Source: Tolypothrix carrinoi HA7290-LM1 (GTDB taxonomy: Bacteria > Cyanobacteriota > Cyanobacteriia > Cyanobacteriales > Nostocaceae). Taken from it: 14,705 nt of DNA. Positions 4,668-14,635 of this stretch are shown piece by piece. Under the pieces are notes generated by a model, which saw nothing but the letters and a program-made list of their open reading frames with translations, was not told the DNA's origin and ran no database searches. Positions within the stretch are counted from its first letter, which is position 1, and every line of letters begins with the position of its first letter. The DNA is taken from assembly GCA_019358935.1 (NCBI GenBank), contig JAHHIK010000156.1:1-14705 (forward strand). The letters are read 5' to 3'. Both the position numbers and the translations under genes were made by a program.

Positions 4668-6227
4668 TTATCCAAAATCTTTCTTTAGTCTTTCTGGTAG
4701 GCAATCCTGTCTAATCAAGTCTTGATAAGTTTCGCGCTGCAAAATTAAATTTGCTTCGCCATCCTTGACTATAACCGCTGCCGATCGCGGTATGCGATTG
4801 TAGTTAGATGCCATACTGTAATTGTACGCACCAGTTGCCATTACTACGAGAATATCTCCGGGTTGAGTTTTTGGCAGTTGGGCATTTTTTATGAGAATAT
4901 CCCCTGATTCACAATGTTTACCAGCAATTGTCACTGTTTCGGTTGAGGGAGTTGACATACGGTTAGCGACTACTGCCCGGTAAACTGACTGGTAAGTAAT
5001 CGGTCGTGCATTATCAGACATTCCTCCATCCACAGCTACGTAGGTACGGATTCCCGGAATCACTTTGGACGATCCTAACGTATAAGCAGTGACACAAGCT
5101 GTGGCAATTAGCGATCGCCCAGGTTCACATAATAACTTAGGTAAAGGTAAATTTTCTCTAGCACAAGCAGATTGAATCACTTCACAAATCGGTTTCACCC
5201 ACTCTTCAATGCTCGGTGGATCGTCTGATTCAATATACTTAATCCCCAAACCGCCACCAACATTTAATTCTGTCACGCTTAAACCGTAACCAGCCGCTTT
5301 ACTCAACCACTGCACCATCAAAGCCGCTAAATCGCGATGCGGTTGACGTTCAAAAATCTGAGAACCAATATGAGCATGTAATCCCGCGCAGTTAAGATGT
5401 GATTGCTTGCTGACAAAAGTAAACAATTCATCCAGCGCATTCGGATCGAAGCCAAATTTAGTATCTAACTGTCCTGTCTGAATATACTCATGAGTGTGAC
5501 ACTCAATACCCGGAGTCAGCCGCAGCATAATCCGGATGGGGAGTGGGGGGGATGAGGAAGAGGGGGGAGACAAGGGAGAGGGGGGGCACAAGGGAGACAA
5601 GGAAGAAATTCCTGTTTGTCCCCCTGCTCCCTGCTCCCTGCTCCCTGCTCCCCCTTGTCCCCCTTGTCCCCCTTGTCCCCCTTGTCCCCTTGTCTCCCTG
5701 TCTTCTGCTATCTCCACCAAAGTATGCAACTCATACCAGTTATCCACCACGATGGTGCAACCAGACTCGATGGCAAAAACTAGCTCTTGGCGAGACTTAT
5801 TATTGCTGTGAAGGTAGATTTTATCAGGACTGACACCCGCTTGTAGTGCCGTGTAAAGTTCGCCTCCTGATGCTACATCTACACCTAAACCTTGATGAGC
5901 GGCGATCGCACAAATTGCCAAACAACTCCAAGCCTTTGAAGCATACAATACCTGAGATTCACCTTTGTAGTATTGCTTAAAAGAATCTCGGTATTGCTGA
6001 CAAGCGCGAATGAGCGTTTCTTCATCCAAAATATATAAAGGCGAACCATACTGCTGAACTAGAGTTGTGACATCACAACCACCAATTTCCAGGCAGTCAT
6101 TACTATTAACTCTGGCACTCAAGGGTAAAAGTTGCTGATTCGGCGACAATTTGCCATTTTTACCGTTTATATCAGGTAAATACTGACTACCAGAATGTTG
6201 AATGCCTGCCGGGTGAGTCGATACCAT
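4668..6227 (-). CDS. lysA: Diaminopimelate decarboxylase with an in-frame low-complexity insertion
   Basis: YASKA (PLP lysine), HAHIGSQ, GGGLG, EPGRS, CESGD and GAY motifs of fold-type III decarboxylases. Confidence 0.96.
   Translation of the reverse strand: MVSTHPAGIQHSGSQYLPDINGKNGKLSPNQQLLPLSARVNSNDCLEIGGCDVTTLVQQYGSPLYILDEETLIRACQQYRDSFKQYYKGESQVLYASKAWSCLAICAIAAHQGLGVDVASGGELYTALQAGVSPDKIYLHSNNKSRQELVFAIESGCTIVVDNWYELHTLVEIAEDRETRGQGGQGGQGGQGGAGSREQGAGGQTGISSLSPLCPPSPLSPPSSSSPPLPIRIMLRLTPGIECHTHEYIQTGQLDTKFGFDPNALDELFTFVSKQSHLNCAGLHAHIGSQIFERQPHRDLAALMVQWLSKAAGYGLSVTELNVGGGLGIKYIESDDPPSIEEWVKPICEVIQSACARENLPLPKLLCEPGRSLIATACVTAYTLGSSKVIPGIRTYVAVDGGMSDNARPITYQSVYRAVVANRMSTPSTETVTIAGKHCESGDILIKNAQLPKTQPGDILVVMATGAYNYSMASNYNRIPRSAAVIVKDGEANLILQRETYQDLIRQDCLPERLKKDFG
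5538..5705. repeat. Foldback STRR-type repeat inserted in frame in lysA
   Basis: GGAGACAAGG arm, AT-rich centre, CTCCCTG heptamers and CTTGTCCCC nonamers. The span encodes about 56 aa (EDRETRGQGGQGG...SSSPPLP) without a stop on the lysA strand. Confidence 0.85.
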
Positions 6228-7210: not shown

Positions 7211-9679
7211 ATGTTTGAACGCTTCACAGAAAAAGCCATTAAGGTAATCATGCTTGCTCAAGAAGAGGCACGCCGTCTTGGGCATAATTTTGTCGGTACT
7301 GAGCAGATCCTCCTGGGTCTAATTGGCGAAGGTACCGGAGTGGCGGCTAAGGTGCTGAAATCAATGGGCGTCAATCTCAAAGACGCTCGGATTGAAGTAG
7401 AAAAAATCATAGGTCGAGGCTCAGGCTTTGTGGCTGTGGAAATTCCGTTCACGCCACGGGCAAAGCGAGTTTTAGAACTATCCTTGGAAGAAGCGCGCCA
7501 ATTAGGACATAACTACATTGGTACCGAGCATCTGCTGTTGGGCTTGATCCGCGAAGGGGAAGGCGTAGCAGCCAGAGTTCTAGAAAACCTCGGTGTGGAT
7601 CTTTCCAAGGTGCGAACCCAAGTCATTAGAATGCTGGGAGAAACAGCCGAAGTTTCTCCAGGTGGTTCATCAGGTCGGACAAAAACGCCAACGTTGGACG
7701 AATTTGGCTCGAATCTGACCCAAATGGCAGTAGACGGCAAGCTCGATCCAGTAGTGGGACGCGCAAAAGAAATTGAACGGGTGATTCAAATCTTGGGTCG
7801 CCGCACCAAAAATAACCCAGTATTGATTGGGGAACCTGGTGTTGGTAAAACGGCGATCGCTGAAGGTTTGGCGACACGCATCTCCACCAAAGATATCCCC
7901 GACATCTTAGAAGATAAGCGCGTAGTCACTCTCGATATCGGTTTGCTCGTAGCTGGTACCAAGTACCGAGGTGAATTTGAAGAACGCCTGAAGAAAATCA
8001 TGGACGAAATTCGTCAGGCAGGCAATGTCATTCTCGTGATTGACGAAGTTCACACGCTTATTGGTGCAGGTGCAGCAGAAGGGGCAATTGACGCGGCAAA
8101 CATCCTCAAACCAGCTTTGGCAAGAGGTGAATTGCAGTGTATTGGTGCAACAACCCTTGATGAATACCGCAAACACATCGAGCGAGATGCAGCCCTAGAG
8201 CGACGCTTCCAACCAGTAATGGTAGGCGAACCGAGCGTTGATGAAACAATCGAGATTTTGTACGGACTTCGCGACCGTTACGAACAGCACCACAAGCTGA
8301 AAATCTCCGATGAAGCTTTAGTAGCGGCAGCGAAATTGTCCGATAGATATATTAGCGATCGCTACCTTCCAGATAAAGCCATCGACTTAGTTGACGAAGC
8401 AGGTTCTCGCGTCCGCTTGATTAACTCGCAATTGCCACCCGCAGCAAAAGAGTTAGATAAAGAACTGCGTCAGATATTGAAAGAAAAAGATGACGCCGTG
8501 CGCGGTCAAGACTTTGAGAAAGCTGGAGAATTGCGCGATCGGGAAATGGAAATCAAAGCCGAAATTCGGGCGATCGCTCAAAGCAAAACCAACGCATCCG
8601 GCACAGAAGGTTTAGAACCCGTCGTCACCGAAGAGGATATCGCCCACATCGTCGCATCTTGGACTGGAGTACCGGTGAACAAACTCACCGAATCCGAATC
8701 CGAAAAGCTGCTGCACATGGAAGATACCTTGCATCAGCGCCTCATCGGTCAAGAAGATGCTGTCAAAGCAGTTTCTCGTGCCATTCGCCGCGCTCGTGTC
8801 GGTTTGAAAAATCCTAATCGACCCATCGCCAGCTTTATTTTCTCAGGTCCGACTGGTGTTGGTAAAACCGAGTTGGCGAAATCCTTGGCGAGTTACTTCT
8901 TCGGTTCCGAAGAAGCAATGATTCGCCTAGATATGTCCGAATATATGGAGCGCCACACCGTCAGCAAACTGATTGGTTCGCCTCCTGGTTATGTCGGCTA
9001 CAACGAAGGCGGTCAGTTGACCGAAGCCGTGCGCCGTCGTCCTTACACCGTCGTGTTATTCGACGAAATCGAGAAAGCGCACCCAGATGTATTCAACATG
9101 CTGCTGCAAATTCTCGAAGACGGTCGGTTGACAGATGCCAAAGGTCGCACCGTAGACTTCAAGAACACCTTGCTGATTTTGACATCGAACATCGGTTCTA
9201 AGGTAATTGAAAAAGGTGCTTCCAGCATCGGCTTCGAGTTTGCGGATAACGCTGGCGAGTCGCAATACAACAGAATTAAGACTTTGGTGAACGAAGAACT
9301 CAAGCAATACTTCCGTCCAGAGTTCCTCAACCGATTAGATGAAATTATCGTCTTCCGTCAGTTGAGCAAGCCAGAAGTCAGCGAAATCGCTGAAATCATG
9401 CTCAAAGAAGTGTTTGGTCGCTTGACAGAAAAGGGTATCGTCCTAGAAGTCACCGATCGCTTCAAAGACCGCTTGATTACAGAAGGTTACAGCCCCAGTT
9501 ACGGTGCAAGACCTTTACGTCGGGCGATTATGCGCTTGTTAGAAGATAGCCTCGCTGAAGAAATTCTTTCCGGTCGCATCAAAGACGGTGATACAGCCGT
9601 GGTTGATGTCGATGAAAGCGGTACCGTGCAAGTTAGTGCAGGAGAACGTCGGGAATTATTGACCCCAGTAGCTGAGTAA
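7211..9679 (+). CDS. clpC: ATP-dependent Clp protease ATP-binding subunit ClpC
   Basis: Canonical MFERFTEKA start, two Clp-N repeats, Walker A motifs GEPGVGKT and GPTGVGKT, short UVR middle domain and IGF ClpP-docking loop. Confidence 0.97.
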
Positions 9680-9704
9680 AATTTGAAATTTTAGAAAATG
9701 AAAT

Positions 9705-9738
9705 AACGGTAGAGGGTGAAAGTCCTCTACCGTTTTTT
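9705..9738 (+). terminator. Rho-independent terminator of clpC
   Basis: Stem AACGGTAGAGG / CCTCTACCGTT followed by a T run, 25 nt after the stop. Confidence 0.85.
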
Positions 9739-9829
9739 GTTTGAATATGTATGGGGTTTATAGTTATTATATTTTTCCCTGAATCGTAGGATTTAGCTAT
9801 TTTAAGTCGAAAAAACTTAACCCCTAATC

Positions 9830-10168
9830 ATGAGCGGAATTAATCGTCAACTTACCATTGATGCTAGACAAGTTGCCAAGCATATAGCTGGTACACCTCA
9901 AATGCAAAGACTTCTGAAAAGAGGACTTGCTGCTCATGTATTTAACGATGAAACTACAATGAATATAGTCGCTCAAGCCATAATAGAAAATGGGCAGTTC
10001 ACCGGAATAATTCGAGGGTATGAGCGTTATGGAATGTTTTTTGATGAACTAATAGGTTATAGAATTAGTCCAGATGGTAGCCGCATTCCACTTTATTATG
10101 GGGAGATAAAAATTAATGCAGACGACCAATACCACGTCATCCCCCGCACAAGACCTAGTGAAGAATAA
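9830..10168 (+). CDS. Putative stand-alone RNase toxin, Ntox50/DUF6972-like
   Basis: 112 aa with N-terminal Q-x-x-KHIxG, central IGYR...G and C-terminal YHVIP, resembling the polymorphic toxin 50 motif pattern as recalled. No signal peptide. Confidence 0.6.
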   Translation: MSGINRQLTIDARQVAKHIAGTPQMQRLLKRGLAAHVFNDETTMNIVAQAIIENGQFTGIIRGYERYGMFFDELIGYRISPDGSRIPLYYGEIKINADDQYHVIPRTRPSEE

Positions 10169-10385
10169 CTGGGAATTTACGGAAGTATGGATAGATCCAA
10201 TGTTATCCCCTCCATACATTCTTTTATTACTATGTGAGAGTGAGGGAAATTGTCAGATTTACGACCCGGCACAAAGTTATAAAGTTATATTTTCTAGTAA
10301 TAGTTATGATGCAGCTAAATCATGGTTACTAGAAGATGAATATGAACCAATTGAAGGTAGGCTGTTAGCTGCGGAATTAGTCTGA
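10158..10385 (+). CDS. Small acidic hypothetical protein, putative immunity/antitoxin partner
   Basis: GTG at 10158 overlaps the upstream gene end by 11 nt. 75 aa, acidic and aromatic (WLLEDEYEPIEGR). ATG 10116 is an alternative start. The function is inferred. Confidence 0.65.
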   Translation: MKNNWEFTEVWIDPMLSPPYILLLLCESEGNCQIYDPAQSYKVIFSSNSYDAAKSWLLEDEYEPIEGRLLAAELV

Positions 10386-10499
10386 AATTGATTCATTTGT
10401 CAGAGAAAGAAAATCAGGCTCGCCCTATTTGTCTTCTTGTTTAACCCAAAGATGAGCAGACGTGGAAAATTCAGTTTTAAGCCACAACAGATAATCAAG

Positions 10500-10529
10500 T
10501 AGAATTAGTACACACTAACAACAAAGGAG
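10500..10529 (+). promoter_or_regulatory. Candidate -10 box and ribosome-binding site for the protease gene pair
   Basis: TAGAAT at 10500-10505; AAGGAG at 10524-10529, 7 nt before GTG 10537. Confidence 0.4.
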
Positions 10530-10536
10530 CAAAGCC

Positions 10537-10809
10537 GTGCAAACCATACTCTTAAGCCGCGAAGAAGTTGCCCGACGTGCGAAAGAACTATACGAAAACA
10601 GCATTCGTCAACAAGTGGAAACAGAAGAAAACATCGGTAAGATGGTGATTATTGATATAGAAACAGGTGAATACGCGGTTGATAAAATAGGCATAGAATC
10701 AGCACATCTCTTGCGTAAAAATAACCCATTAGCTAGACTTTTTGGTATTCGTATCGGTTACAAGGTTGCTGTTTCCTTCAGTGGTGAAATGGAGCGTGAT
10801 TATCGGTGA
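10537..10809 (+). CDS. Small hypothetical protein of the type found upstream of clan AA proteases (DUF5678-like)
   Basis: 90-aa ORF with a good RBS, motifs GKMVIIDIETGEY and RIG, and a GTGA overlap with the protease gene. Confidence 0.75.
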   Translation: MQTILLSREEVARRAKELYENSIRQQVETEENIGKMVIIDIETGEYAVDKIGIESAHLLRKNNPLARLFGIRIGYKVAVSFSGEMERDYR

Positions 10810-11171
10810 TTTCTGGTATTGTCAAAAACGGACGTGCAACCGTTAATGTGATATTTCGACTGCCAAATCAACCAGATTTTACTATTGAGTTTGTTATCGA
10901 TACAGGTTTCACAGAGTATCTTTCCCTACCCCCAGAAGCAGTTAGTCTATTGGGGTTTTCTTTTGTATATGATATGTATGCAAATTTAGCTGACAATAGT
11001 AGTGTAATCTTGCCAGTACATCAAGCTACCATTATTTGGAATGGAGAAGAACGGGAAGTGAATGTACTTGCTACAGGACGGCTACCTCTATTAGGCACAG
11101 GTTTACTTGATGAGCATGAACTTATCATACAGTTTACCGAGGGCGGTTTAGTAACAATTGATGAGTTATAG
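10806..11171 (+). CDS. Clan AA (retropepsin-like) aspartic protease
   Basis: FVIDTGF catalytic motif, flap-like LADNS and C-terminal PLLGTGLL; single 121-aa domain. Confidence 0.85.
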   Translation: MISGIVKNGRATVNVIFRLPNQPDFTIEFVIDTGFTEYLSLPPEAVSLLGFSFVYDMYANLADNSSVILPVHQATIIWNGEEREVNVLATGRLPLLGTGLLDEHELIIQFTEGGLVTIDEL

Positions 11172-11202
11172 TTGTTTGCTGGATATATTAACTTTCTATA
11201 AG

Positions 11203-11238
11203 CAGCAATGAGAATTATTACCCCAAGGGGTTGAATAG
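11203..11238 (+). pseudogene. Orphan relic of a clpC-type 3' end
   Basis: CAG CAA TGA GAA TTA TTA CCC CAA GGG GTT GAA TAG reads QQ*ELLPQGVE-stop and aligns codon for codon with the live clpC end [15 protein letters not shown]. Similar post-stop sequence and a similar terminator follow. Confidence 0.65.
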
Positions 11239-11297
11239 GATTGAAAATTTTAGATTTTGGATTTGAGATTAAATCTCAGATTTTTAATTTTAAATTT

Positions 11298-11334
11298 AAA
11301 AACGGTGAAGGTATTGAAGCCTTTACCGTTTTTT
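11298..11334 (+). terminator. Rho-independent terminator similar to the clpC terminator
   Basis: Stem AAAAACGGTGAAGG / CCTTTACCGTTTTT with a T tail, preceded by short ATTTTAG/ATTTTGG-type repeats. Confidence 0.8.
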
Positions 11335-11493
11335 GTTGTTTACCGATACGACAATAACACAAACACTAGATAAATCTAACCTTATTCCTTTTACAACAAT
11401 TTCTGCTTCAGTGTTAGATCATGCTCTGTTTGCGGGAAAACTAAAAATAGGCGTTTAATGCAAACAGTTGACTAAGAGTTAGAAAGACCACAG

Positions 11494-13617
11494 ATGGGAA
11501 TTAGAAGCGTTTATAACTTTAGCGAAGTTGCAGGTCGTAGTCTTGATCTCTGGCGGCAGCTTATAGGTAGAAGGGTTACTCATAATCAATTTGGAGAAGG
11601 AATAGTTAAGGATATAAAAGGTGTTTGGTTAGATATATATGTCTCATTTAAAGCTCAACAACGAATTGACAAATTTGATAGATATCAATTTTTACGACAA
11701 TTCAGTGAAATAGATCCTCCTATTAATCTAATCTCACCCGAAGAAATGCGGAGACAGGAAAAAGAAGAAGAACAAAGGCGATGGCAAGAACAATATAAGC
11801 AAACTGAAGTAAAGCGTAGAGAACAAGATAAACTCTGGCTCCTAAAAATAGAATCAGAACGGCAGGAACACGCTCGTCGCAAAGCACAAAAACAGGCTTT
11901 ACTTGAAAAATTAAAAGACAAGTTTGAACAAAACTTTCTCAATGCTGACAACTTCTATCAAGCACAATGTACTGAACACATAACATTTAAAGAGTATGAA
12001 GCTGAAAAGTTTAATTATGTGCGATTGTGGGTAAAAAGCAACTTGAACTCTTCACCTGACCTTGAGCAAGCAGCAGCAATTGGTGCTGTTGAAGGTCATG
12101 TACAAGTAGTGGCTAGGGCTGGTAGTGGCAAAACTTCCACCTTGGTCAACCGAGCTTTATTTTTACAAAAACATTGCGGTGTCGCACCCAGCGAGATGTT
12201 GCTTTTAGCCTTCAATCGCAAGGCTGCGGAGGAGATACGAGAACGGCTTACTCTACAACTACAAAACTCTATTCCTCATGTAATGACTTTCCACGCATTA
12301 GCCTATGCTTTAGTTCATCCCGAAGAAAGCATTCTTTTTGACGAACCAAATGGTCACAAGCACCAAGGCAAGGCTCTACAGGCTGTGATTGATGAGTACT
12401 TACGCAACCCGATTTTTTATGAAAAAATTCGCGCTTTGATGATGGCGCACTTTCGTCAAGACTGGGAGCGTATAGTTTCAGGTGGCTATGATAAAAGTCC
12501 TGAAGAAATGCTCAGTTACCGTCGCTCATTGCAAAGAGAAGGGCTTGATGGAACTTACCTCAAATCTTACGGTGAGAAAGTAATTGCTGACTTTTTATTT
12601 GAACACAACATTCAATACAAATATGAGCGTAACTTCTGGTGGAATGGCATCAATTATCGCCCTGACTTTACAATTTATACTGGAGAAAATCAAGGGATAG
12701 TTATCGAATATTTCGGACTTGAAGGCGATCCAGATTATGATGCCATGTCGGCTCAAAAGCGCGAGTATTGGCGAAATCATCCTAACTGGCATTTTGTGGA
12801 ATTATCCCCCAGAACCCTCAGATTTGAGGGAGTAGAAGATTTTTGTGCTTTACTTAAGCGATGTCTGGAAAGTTACGGTATTAAATGCGATCGCTTGAGC
12901 GAAGAAGAAATTTGGAAGAAAATTAAAGTTAGAGCTATAGACCGCTTCACCAAAGTAGTAGAGGGATTTATTCAACGTTGTCGCAAACTTTCCCTCACTT
13001 CCGAAAAATTAGCCTCAATTGTTAATAATCATAACTGTGCTAGTGATGTAGAGGAGCCTTTCTTATATCTGGCACAAAAATTTTATAAGTCCTATCTGCA
13101 ACGTCTTCAGACAACAGGTGAGGAAGATTTTGATGGACTGATGCAAAAAGCTACGGCAATTGTTACATCAAAACAGACTATATTTCGTCGCAAATCTGGC
13201 GTTGGCGATCTAAAGTGTCTTCGATACATACTTATTGATGAATATCAAGATTTCTCAGAACTCTTCCATCATTTAATAGCAGCAATTCGAGAACAAAATC
13301 CTCAAGCACAATTTTTCTGTGTTGGTGATGACTGGCAAGCAATTAATGGCTTTGCTGGTTCCGACCTTCGCTTTTACCAGAATTTCGCGCAATTTTTCCT
13401 GCCTTCGCAAAAACTCCATATAGCCACTAATTACCGTTCAGCTACTTCAATTGTCGATATCGGTAATACATTGATGCAAGGATTGGGTACTCCTGCTCGC
13501 GCCGATAAAACTAAGTTTGGAATCGTTGAAATTGCTGAACTCGGACAATTTTATCCGCCTTCGGCGGAAGGCAGAAGGCAGAGGGCAGAGGGCAGAAGGT
13601 ATAAATTATGTCTTTGA
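11494..13617 (+). CDS. N-terminal fragment of the UvrD-family helicase (motifs Q to IV); the last ~21 aa are insertion-derived
   Basis: 707-aa ORF whose tail YPPSAEGRRQRAEGRRYKLCL is read from the repeat element. Confidence 0.7.
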   Translation: MGIRSVYNFSEVAGRSLDLWRQLIGRRVTHNQFGEGIVKDIKGVWLDIYVSFKAQQRIDKFDRYQFLRQFSEIDPPINLISPEEMRRQEKEEEQRRWQEQYKQTEVKRREQDKLWLLKIESERQEHARRKAQKQALLEKLKDKFEQNFLNADNFYQAQCTEHITFKEYEAEKFNYVRLWVKSNLNSSPDLEQAAAIGAVEGHVQVVARAGSGKTSTLVNRALFLQKHCGVAPSEMLLLAFNRKAAEEIRERLTLQLQNSIPHVMTFHALAYALVHPEESILFDEPNGHKHQGKALQAVIDEYLRNPIFYEKIRALMMAHFRQDWERIVSGGYDKSPEEMLSYRRSLQREGLDGTYLKSYGEKVIADFLFEHNIQYKYERNFWWNGINYRPDFTIYTGENQGIVIEYFGLEGDPDYDAMSAQKREYWRNHPNWHFVELSPRTLRFEGVEDFCALLKRCLESYGIKCDRLSEEEIWKKIKVRAIDRFTKVVEGFIQRCRKLSLTSEKLASIVNNHNCASDVEEPFLYLAQKFYKSYLQRLQTTGEEDFDGLMQKATAIVTSKQTIFRRKSGVGDLKCLRYILIDEYQDFSELFHHLIAAIREQNPQAQFFCVGDDWQAINGFAGSDLRFYQNFAQFFLPSQKLHIATNYRSATSIVDIGNTLMQGLGTPARADKTKFGIVEIAELGQFYPPSAEGRRQRAEGRRYKLCL

Positions 13618-13747
13618 TTCAGCCTTCTGGCTGGAGCCAACTGGGTATAAAACCCCACCGTCTACACGGTGGATTCAATCGGTTGGGGTTTGAATCCCCA
13701 TCCGATTGCTCCTTCAGCATAGCTGCCTCCTGCCCTCTGCCTTTCTT
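13552..13747. mobile_element. ~195-bp structured foldback (MITE-like) element interrupting the helicase gene
   Basis: Inverted heptamer arms (GGCAGA(A/G) units at about 13568-13599; CTGCCTCCTGCCCTCTGCCTT at 13723-13743) enclosing hairpins at 13618-13635, 13655-13672 and 13676-13708, plus a terminal hairpin TCCGCC-TTC-GGCGGA (13554-13568). It introduces a stop and a frameshift. Confidence 0.75.
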
Positions 13748-14635
13748 CAACCAACTCTAAAGGAGCAAGAGGAGCATCGAGGAGACAACATAACACCTGC
13801 CATATTGCGCTTAGTGGACAAGACTATCAAAGATGGCAAAAATGTAGTTTTACTCAGCCGCAAGAATAGTTTGCCTTGGTACGTTAATTACACAAACCGT
13901 ACATCAAGAGACGGCTCACTTGATAGTTTTCTACAATTGGTGCATTCCTATCTTCCCGAAGAATCAAGAAAGGCTGTAACTATATCAACTGCTCACAAGT
14001 ATAAAGGTCTTCAGAAAGATGTAGTTATAATACTCGATGCCGTCCCTCGTTGTTACCCATTAATACACCCCGATTTGATGTTCACTCGTGTTTTTGGTGA
14101 TAGTATTGAGCGTGTAGTTGATGAGGAACGCCGTCTTTTTTACGTTGCATTAACTCGTGCAGTAGAGCGCTTATTCATTCTCACCGAGACAAACAACTTG
14201 TCACCTTTCCTTGAAGAATTAAAGAGCAGGAAAAATATTACCTTACTGGATTGGTTAGATTACCCGCCTTTTGTTGGAACAATACAGCGCATTATTGTTA
14301 AAGTGGGTAATCAGATTGGACAAGGTACAAACGGCACTTTCACAATCAAAGACTTGCTCAGGGCTGAAGGCTATAGTTGGAACACAACTGGATGGCTTGC
14401 TTGGTGTCGCACCTATCCAGCACAGGACTTCTCAATAGAACAATATTTTGATAACGCTCAGTGGATTTCTCACGCTGCTGGAATCGAGGTGCGGTTTTAT
14501 GACGATTTAGAAAATATGCTGGCGATTTATCGTGTTGATCGAGGGCAATGTACTCCCGTCATTAACAATATTCCTGAATTACTCCCCTCCCACTCCAAGA
14601 TTACCTATAATAATGAGCAGGGTGTATTGTTATAA
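13706..14635 (+). CDS. C-terminal fragment of the UvrD-family helicase (motifs V and VI plus an extra C-terminal domain)
   Basis: Helicase-like sequence begins near 13748 (QPTLKE). The TTG start at 13706 lies inside the inserted element, so independent translation is unproven. Confidence 0.6.
   Translation: MLLQHSCLLPSAFLQPTLKEQEEHRGDNITPAILRLVDKTIKDGKNVVLLSRKNSLPWYVNYTNRTSRDGSLDSFLQLVHSYLPEESRKAVTISTAHKYKGLQKDVVIILDAVPRCYPLIHPDLMFTRVFGDSIERVVDEERRLFYVALTRAVERLFILTETNNLSPFLEELKSRKNITLLDWLDYPPFVGTIQRIIVKVGNQIGQGTNGTFTIKDLLRAEGYSWNTTGWLAWCRTYPAQDFSIEQYFDNAQWISHAAGIEVRFYDDLENMLAIYRVDRGQCTPVINNIPELLPSHSKITYNNEQGVLL

Follow-up and report, generated by a model that had tools for sequence, protein, structure and literature searches.

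We analyzed a window of 14,705 nt, contig JAHHIK010000156.1 (C156) in the 7.96-Mb genome (G000) of the cyanobacterium Tolypothrix carrinoi HA7290-LM1, in which clpC, the gene for an ATP-dependent Clp protease ATPase, is followed by a short run of cargo genes and then by a second, decayed clpC end. The features described here all lie on the + strand. The intact clpC (7211..9679) encodes 822 aa from an MFERF start in the open reading frame (ORF) list, matches the Pfam families Clp_N, AAA, and AAA_2, and has an ending native to its genus; with 84-99% nucleotide identity across the family, it is a plausible left homology anchor for the exchange slot behind it. Its stop codon, TAA (9677-9679), is followed by an AT-rich spacer and an intrinsic terminator (9680..9739; stem 9705-9734 with a T run), recognized by folding and by a stem conserved in 20 relatives. 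Four small same-strand ORFs then make up an insert of 1.46 kb. Module A consists of a DUF6972 gene (9830..10168), a free-standing polymorphic-toxin tip resembling Ntox50, and a small overlapping ORF (10116..10385) placed as a candidate immunity gene by the ORF list and its position. Module B consists of a gene for a 90-aa cyanobacterial hypothetical protein (10537..10809; ORF list, unnamed Atlas clusters) and a gene for a clan AA aspartic protease (10806..11171; TIGR03698, E 1.2e-27, above cut-off). The insert ends at a junction at ~11198-11200, where profile and alignment place a relic clpC coding tail of a foreign, PQGVE type (11200..11238, KQQ*ELLPQGVE*), and its post-stop spacer and intact terminator follow (11239..11342; 15-pair stem 11298-11333; profile and folding). 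Beyond it lies module C, a UvrD-like helicase gene identified with Pfam and NCBIfam (11494..14635) and split by a 196-bp repeat at 13555-13750.

Both clpC ends lie where the sequence-only reading had placed them, and its central claim, that the clpC 3′ end and terminator are present twice, holds. Compared directly, the live end and its echo share ungapped repeats of 74% identity over 43 nt and 72% over 46 nt, with a local alignment score of 53 (mean 27.3 and maximum 52 in 1000 shuffles), and a self-BLAST of the live end against the relic across the genome was not significant (E 0.16-2.0). Because this self-similarity was too weak, we turned to profiles. When the clpC ends of 29 relatives, without that of our own genome, were combined into a nucleotide profile, the profile matched 11200-11342 at E 1.9e-16 in a search of the 7.96-Mb genome, where the best unrelated match reached 0.029; a coding-only profile gave the relic E 6.6e-4 and the next match 0.13. 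By profile search, this clpC-end repeat of ~140 nt exists in two genome copies only, and both hairpins fold (−19.4 and −19.9 kcal/mol, z −5.3 and −6.7). The feeble self-BLAST result is the kind of outcome that a chance resemblance in AT-rich DNA beside an unrelated terminator would give, but that explanation is refuted by the profile match, and homologous, less decayed relics in relatives read QQRRELLPQG; we give it practically no chance. The arrangement is not an assembly artifact, as contigs from two other runs bridge the clpC end to the relic (X2 record 14, 9311-11392, and X3 record 17). The stretch 11200-11342 is confirmed as a decayed clpC 3′ end with an intact terminator.

A crucial question is which of the two tails is native. 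The sequence-only reading held that foreign DNA had entered at the clpC 3′ end, supplied clpC with a new tail, and pushed the ancestral tail behind the cargo. Entry at the clpC 3′ end is borne out, but the replacement of the tail is not. The other genomes of the genus carry ELLTPVAE (9 of 10) or ELLIPVAE (1 of 10), and nine genus loci form a single clade in the clpC tree with support of 1.0. The last 1.8 kb of clpC is 92-99% identical to the genus until the last 60 nt, which are still 83-100% identical within the genus versus 63-70% to other genera, and the breakpoint scan that had been suggested found no switch to another genus along that 1.8 kb. In relative G001, clpC is identical over its last 139 aa and has the same tail, and the complete clpC-lepB interval of 4.6 kb contains neither the module B protease pair nor a relic, a finding that the sequence-only reading had itself named as one that would refute it. 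Because all 10 other genus genomes, including relic-free G001, carry this tail or a one-residue variant of it, the live ELLTPVAE tail is native to the genus, and clpC did not have its own ending replaced. When the 11 genus genomes were searched in full, 4 of them (G000, G009, G003, and G004) had the coding relic, and terminator-only clpC copies turned up in G002, G006, and G009.

The opposite polarity, in which the incoming DNA brought TPVAE and the PQGVE relic is the displaced ancestral end of the lineage, possibly dating to the base of the genus, draws on three observations: the genus clade is nested among PQ-type relatives, the two tail types differ by offsetting single-base indels, so that an ancient tail swap is possible, and genome G022 displays just such a displacement of a lineage-type end. 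It is nevertheless largely refuted, and we consider it very unlikely, since all 11 genus genomes are of the TP or IP type with or without cargo, and the window relic has the junction and nonsense codon of Nostoc relics whose live tail is PQGVE, so that it was not made here. Tail displacement, as claimed for this clpC, fails for it and fits G022. Tail state changes between PQ and TP 7 times on a 104-taxon tree versus 35 when shuffled. The indels that separate the types over the 104 loci (TTA CCC CAA versus TTG ACC CCA) and their seven alternations on the tree may be a record of old tail swaps. In a comparison with loci L002 and L016, the loop type of the live terminator (9680-9739) is shared with G023, a member of another genus, and with G009 and not with the close relative G001, which suggests that terminators were swapped along with cargo.

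The relic agrees at 53 of 58 positions, the TGA among them, with two Nostoc relics and at 35 of 58 with the live tail of its own genome; as a match to the relic, that live end ranks 67th of 97, and the best matches are live ends of PQGVE genera, in agreement with the earlier view of the echo as a displaced clpC end of that type. The junction CTAT/CAACAGC, or a variant of it, recurs behind the protease gene in genomes of several genera and in the window corresponds to a position ~40-47 nt ahead of the clpC stop. A TCAACAGC-like 8-mer at the module B junction may be microhomology or a remnant of the relic. The same module B junction carries two relic alleles, each closest to the live end of a different lineage.

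A scan of the collection for the protease gave 57 loci, whose titles name Nostoc, Dolichospermum, Cylindrospermum, Anabaena, Aulosira, and others, and which are not an independent set, as some repeat earlier loci. Among them clpC lies upstream in 38, lepB downstream in 7, and either in 40, with 9 too short and 8 having neither. A coding relic lies at most 120 nt from the protease in 14 of the 53 loci with a full protease end, and the live tails of these 14 are RELLPQGVE in 12 and RELLSQGVE in 1, with clpC outside the sequence in the last. Of the 26 protease homologues in the family sample that are at least 74% identical, 21 follow clpC on its own strand at a distance of less than 15 kb.

The divergence of module B is uncoupled from that of clpC. 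At four-fold sites, clpC and module B of the window differ by 0.04 and 0.23, respectively, from those of G009 and by 0.39 and 0.17 from G023 and 0.41 and 0.15 from G150, both members of other genera, and module B divergence falls below clpC divergence in 102 of 136 pairs. Because of this uncoupling, the fixed link between relic and module B, and the fidelity of module B to the slot, the most likely origin of the scar is a PQGVE lineage, from which it was imported.

The clpC-lepB interval of the Nostocales is an integrase-free gene-exchange slot. Gene content after clpC varies in nearly every one of 97 loci and comes from a shared pool that includes modules A and B, the UvrD-like gene, ParDE and other toxin-antitoxin (TA) pairs, and Uma2 nucleases; lepB is the usual right boundary where it is reached (24 of the 97 loci, 282-12232 nt after clpC). 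Relatives with an empty site include G001, with its single clpC end, and locus L048, in which lepB follows clpC after 282 nt; no relative shows the exact pre-insertion state of the window. The UvrD-like gene is an older slot occupant, and in relatives its homologues follow hairpins of the clpC type. Of 106 loci, 13 have extra hairpins of this type, compared with 3 unrelated matches in the 7.96-Mb T. carrinoi genome, and G009 has one directly before lepB; the count had stood at 17 loci before five extra "terminator" matches at one position inside lepB were dropped as chance.

Other, independent clpC relics differ in where they begin relative to the clpC stop. G021 has a 316-nt relic, 98% identical to its own clpC end, behind module A (start −227), and in G022 the lineage-type end is shifted by ~340 nt (start −44) and a different terminator now occupies the live position. 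A clpC tail-terminator copy in G069 (L064 9271-9412) starts near −50, lies 5.6 Mb from clpC, and adjoins an IS630-like transposase pair, and a further Nostoc relic family starts near −20. Together with the window, these events give clpC junctions at −227, ~−50, −44, −40/−47, and ~−20, in addition to the terminator-only copies. The tally of 8 clear relics and 1 weak one among 97 loci is not unbiased, as about half of the loci were chosen for at least two matches. Three candidate relics (G009:C120, G004:C52, and G027:C21) were inspected and not confirmed.

The layout of the window recalls a familiar class of element. Integrative elements that target gene 3′ ends replace the tail at one end and leave the displaced fragment at the other, as attL and attR. 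Cases at tRNA genes are mentioned in two surveys (PMC2853133 and PMC5635113). As in such elements, an intact gene stands upstream of the insert and a displaced 3′ fragment downstream. The clpC 3′ end could accordingly be an attB where an integrase that worked in trans, or was deleted later, placed islets and left attR-like relics behind; the junctions at ~−40/−47, −44, and −50 flank a conserved AACAGCG-CGGGAATT block, and the genome holds 20 tyrosine and 11 serine recombinase matches. Other junctions, however, lie at −227, at ~−20, and after the stop, which would not fit a fixed crossover position, and 17 unrelated genes of the same genome share the pattern with duplications of 50-617 nt. Nor did we find an integrase: as the sequence-only reading had noted, none occurs among the scanned cargo and flanking ORFs of the window, and the four cargo ORFs contain no mobility genes. 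Recombinase profiles made from the genome's own enzymes found only two weak matches, 10-13 kb away, in 99 regions around clpC and no match in the 57 protease loci, with limited sensitivity (the serine profile missed the one held-out divergent control, and the tyrosine profile caught 2 of 3 strongly). We regard the attachment-site explanation as unlikely, and the earlier suggestion that clpC is a specific attachment site is disfavored by the scatter of its junctions.

A further rival is local tandem duplication of the clpC end with its cargo, followed by deletion, with vertical inheritance, many losses, and no need for transfer. Recent, near-identical duplicates of their own tails exist in G021 and in the T. 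carrinoi genome, and some module B clades mirror clpC clades (L060/L121; L039/L072/L075). Against such a history, module B of G009, whose clpC is 98.5% identical, is more distant than module B of other genera, and almost every genome has its own arrangement and set of modules; we judge it quite improbable.

We consider insertion with long target duplication, or homology-anchored capture, at an integrase-free hotspot, followed by spread through homologous recombination, to be the probable history of the locus; homology-anchored capture, one of two routes proposed from the sequence, is the likeliest origin. In the first step, a lineage with a ClpC ending in PQGVE would have received DNA carrying clpC, a terminator, and the protease pair, joined on the left by homologous recombination within clpC and on the right by short microhomology ~40-47 nt before the clpC stop, which put the cargo in front of the resident tail and terminator. 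In the second, which appears as a pattern across genomes, the scar-bearing protease pair would have moved between genera by homologous recombination, with one crossover in clpC and a second in either shared cargo or lepB, and would have reached the genus with its own TPVAE tail untouched. The coding part of the relic would then have decayed while its hairpin was kept, probably as a terminator for the cargo transcript.

Several points weigh on the other side. No event was observed, and the sequence would look the same after one-sided capture, after circle integration, or after unequal crossover between chromosome copies. Of the 26 close protease homologues, 5 do not neighbor clpC (2 of them lie near lepB), the distance test relies on ~80 four-fold sites per pair from related genomes that are not independent, and 3 of the 5 coding junctions fall within ~10 nt (−40 to −50), as a fixed site would also give. 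The slot also runs off the end of contig C156, so that its far end lies outside the sequence, and the repeat motif HIP1 is absent at the window's own junction.

Elsewhere in the T. carrinoi genome, the same process would have left many other duplicated gene tails, often joined at HIP1 sites. A strict scan for two-copy direct repeats 250-15000 nt apart, with an 80% cut-off that leaves out the clpC case, returned 86 repeats, among which an intact gene 3′ end stands upstream of a downstream fragment in 17 and the reverse holds in 3 (p 0.003), the comparison leaving out 3 repeats with both labels and 55 without a gene label. The 17 tail duplications enclose inserts of 0.6-10.6 kb, inside which we found no recombinase matches; one host gene has a sub-threshold tyrosine-recombinase match. 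Some of the host genes we take, from their sequences, to be ilvD and a malic enzyme. A looser scan (36 downstream versus 19 upstream) was too noisy, with spurious ORFs and tandem repeats, to be used for counts. In 5 of the 17, HIP1 is found no more than 12 nt from the 5′ junction (null 4%, p 4e-4); at repeat ends overall it occurs in 28 of 172, against 13 of 172 in an inner control, an effect smaller than that against the genome mean, and in the loci of relatives the figures are 4 of 56 and 1 of 56, with 2 of the 4 being the two ends of one repeat. The clpC junction of G021 splits HIP1 between bases 3 and 4. Examples of these duplications include C44 44429-46114, C19 57792-58988, C58 25862-28318, and C107 21356-22534, with further cases in C72, C67, C19 60226-61617, and C101 16773-17690; their integrase-free cargo includes TA-like pairs and a second clan AA protease pair, and several are joined at or beside HIP1.

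A broader proposal is conceivable, although rather doubtful at present. Integrase-free capture may operate genome-wide in Nostocales, with conserved gene ends as landing pads and HIP1 often as the second joint, and the clpC scar, once a cassette carries it, may act as a short right-hand homology arm. With that arm, the cassette could insert again after the clpC of another genus while the cargo already there stays in place, and arrays ordered by age, much like integrons, would grow. The finding of two relic alleles at one module B junction and of HIP1 at 5 of 17 junctions is compatible with this proposal; if it is true, HIP1 would have a direct and natural part in how genes are acquired.

A survey of insertion with long target duplication by Furuta, Abe, and Kobayashi (2010; PMC2853133), which cites Nobusato et al. 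(2000), describes inserts of <20 kb between direct repeats of >30 bp that vary in length, are unique in the genome, and in some cases overlap a gene 3′ end, without mobile-element genes and mostly in competent species, with Microcystis among the examples. The window resembles these in its ~140-nt repeat in two genome copies, its 1.46-kb insert without mobility genes, its single-copy relative (G001), and the variable duplication lengths; its genome encodes ComEC and DprA. The cargo in that survey consists of restriction-modification genes, which were its selection criterion, whereas here the slot carries toxin-tip, protease, and TA pairs, and the four cargo ORFs of the window gave no match to restriction-modification genes; we take this difference as a property of the survey and not of the mechanism. 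The repeats reported there are also near-identical, whereas the live and relic ends here, which come from different genera, have diverged on account of the relic's foreign origin, and a single site serves repeatedly across the family.

Two other systems are close in design. Kirchberger et al. (2017; PMC5361080) describe type VI secretion system effector-immunity and Rhs arrays that grow by sequential displacement through homology-facilitated illegitimate recombination (further background is given in PMC2884548). These arrays and the clpC slot have in common a conserved upstream anchor, a new module beside it, older 3′ ends shifted downstream, spread by homologous recombination, and no integrase, but the anchor there is a toxin carrier that gains a new functional C-terminus, whereas here the anchor is a housekeeping gene whose function is restored unchanged, and the cargo stays unfused. 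Oliveira et al. (2017; PMC5635113) describe hotspots without mobility genes that are fed by recombination at flanking core genes; the variable interval between core genes (here clpC and lepB), the high turnover, and the lack of an integrase are shared, whereas those hotspots lie within species and show no tail relics, and here exchange crosses genera and leaves stacked copies of tail and terminator. The consulted sections of the HIP1 literature (Elhai 2015, PMC4390886; Kamoku and Nielsen, bioRxiv 10.1101/2024.09.10.611283; PMC13756078) link the motif to deletions, plasmid recombination, SDR5 insertion, and transformation efficiency, and the G021 clpC junction falls at the position, between bases 3 and 4, that Elhai cites for SDR5 insertion. 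HIP1 is likewise enriched at duplication ends here, but natural gene-tail duplications are not among the events reported in those sections, and the junction in the window lacks HIP1. A full-text search, with most subscription papers and supplements outside its reach, found no description of clpC as an insertion site or of HIP1 at gene-tail duplications.

A single relic is an ordinary scar; the value of this one lies in the family-wide slot to which it leads, through which genera exchange modules of the toxin-tip, TA, protease, and helicase kinds. The natural junction set can be used for testing HIP1 function, and for any duplicated gene tail it should be checked which copy is native before the pair is interpreted as att sites or a replaced tail.

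The cargo had been described as two toxin-like pairs, a description that fits the first pair only. DUF6972 (Pfam E 8.6e-52) has DUF6972 and Ntox50 as its Atlas neighbors, a resemblance in language-model features, and it forms the C-terminal tip of proteins of 956-2103 aa, with RHS repeats in 3 of 6 long matches checked; its product is presumably an RNase. A single-sequence structure model was unusable (pLDDT 47). The second ORF of module A, whose true start may be a GTG near 10160, has no Pfam, NCBIfam, or PADLOC match but travels with the first, and it is a candidate immunity protein, so that module A is plausibly a toxin-immunity pair. Module B instead pairs a protein of an unnamed family with a clan AA aspartic protease and shows no sign of being a toxin pair. 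A second module A copy, 60% identical, lies away from clpC in the T. carrinoi genome (C34 51925-52462).

We noted several other features of the slot and its surroundings. In contig C70 of the T. carrinoi genome (39183-42212), lepB lies 3 kb from the contig end behind what by eye are a kinase-WD40-like gene and a TnpB-like fragment; this is probably the far end of the C156 slot. In G003, a reverse-transcriptase fragment (RVT_1; L100 116-586, − strand), retron-like by eye, lies upstream of module A. In G009, a five-gene Hsp70/LysM/GrpE-like block (L051 1886-8130) lies between modules A and B, and a similar Hsp70 start follows clpC in G010. A promoter scan of the window did no better than chance. 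The 196-bp repeat in the UvrD-like gene has GGCAGAA/GGCAGAG-rich ends, is missing from G009, and has 42 matches of at least 120 nt in the genome. GC-rich tandem repeats of 8-9 nt occur at 2594-2868 and 5533-5718, one block lying in frame inside a lysA-like gene (4668-6227).

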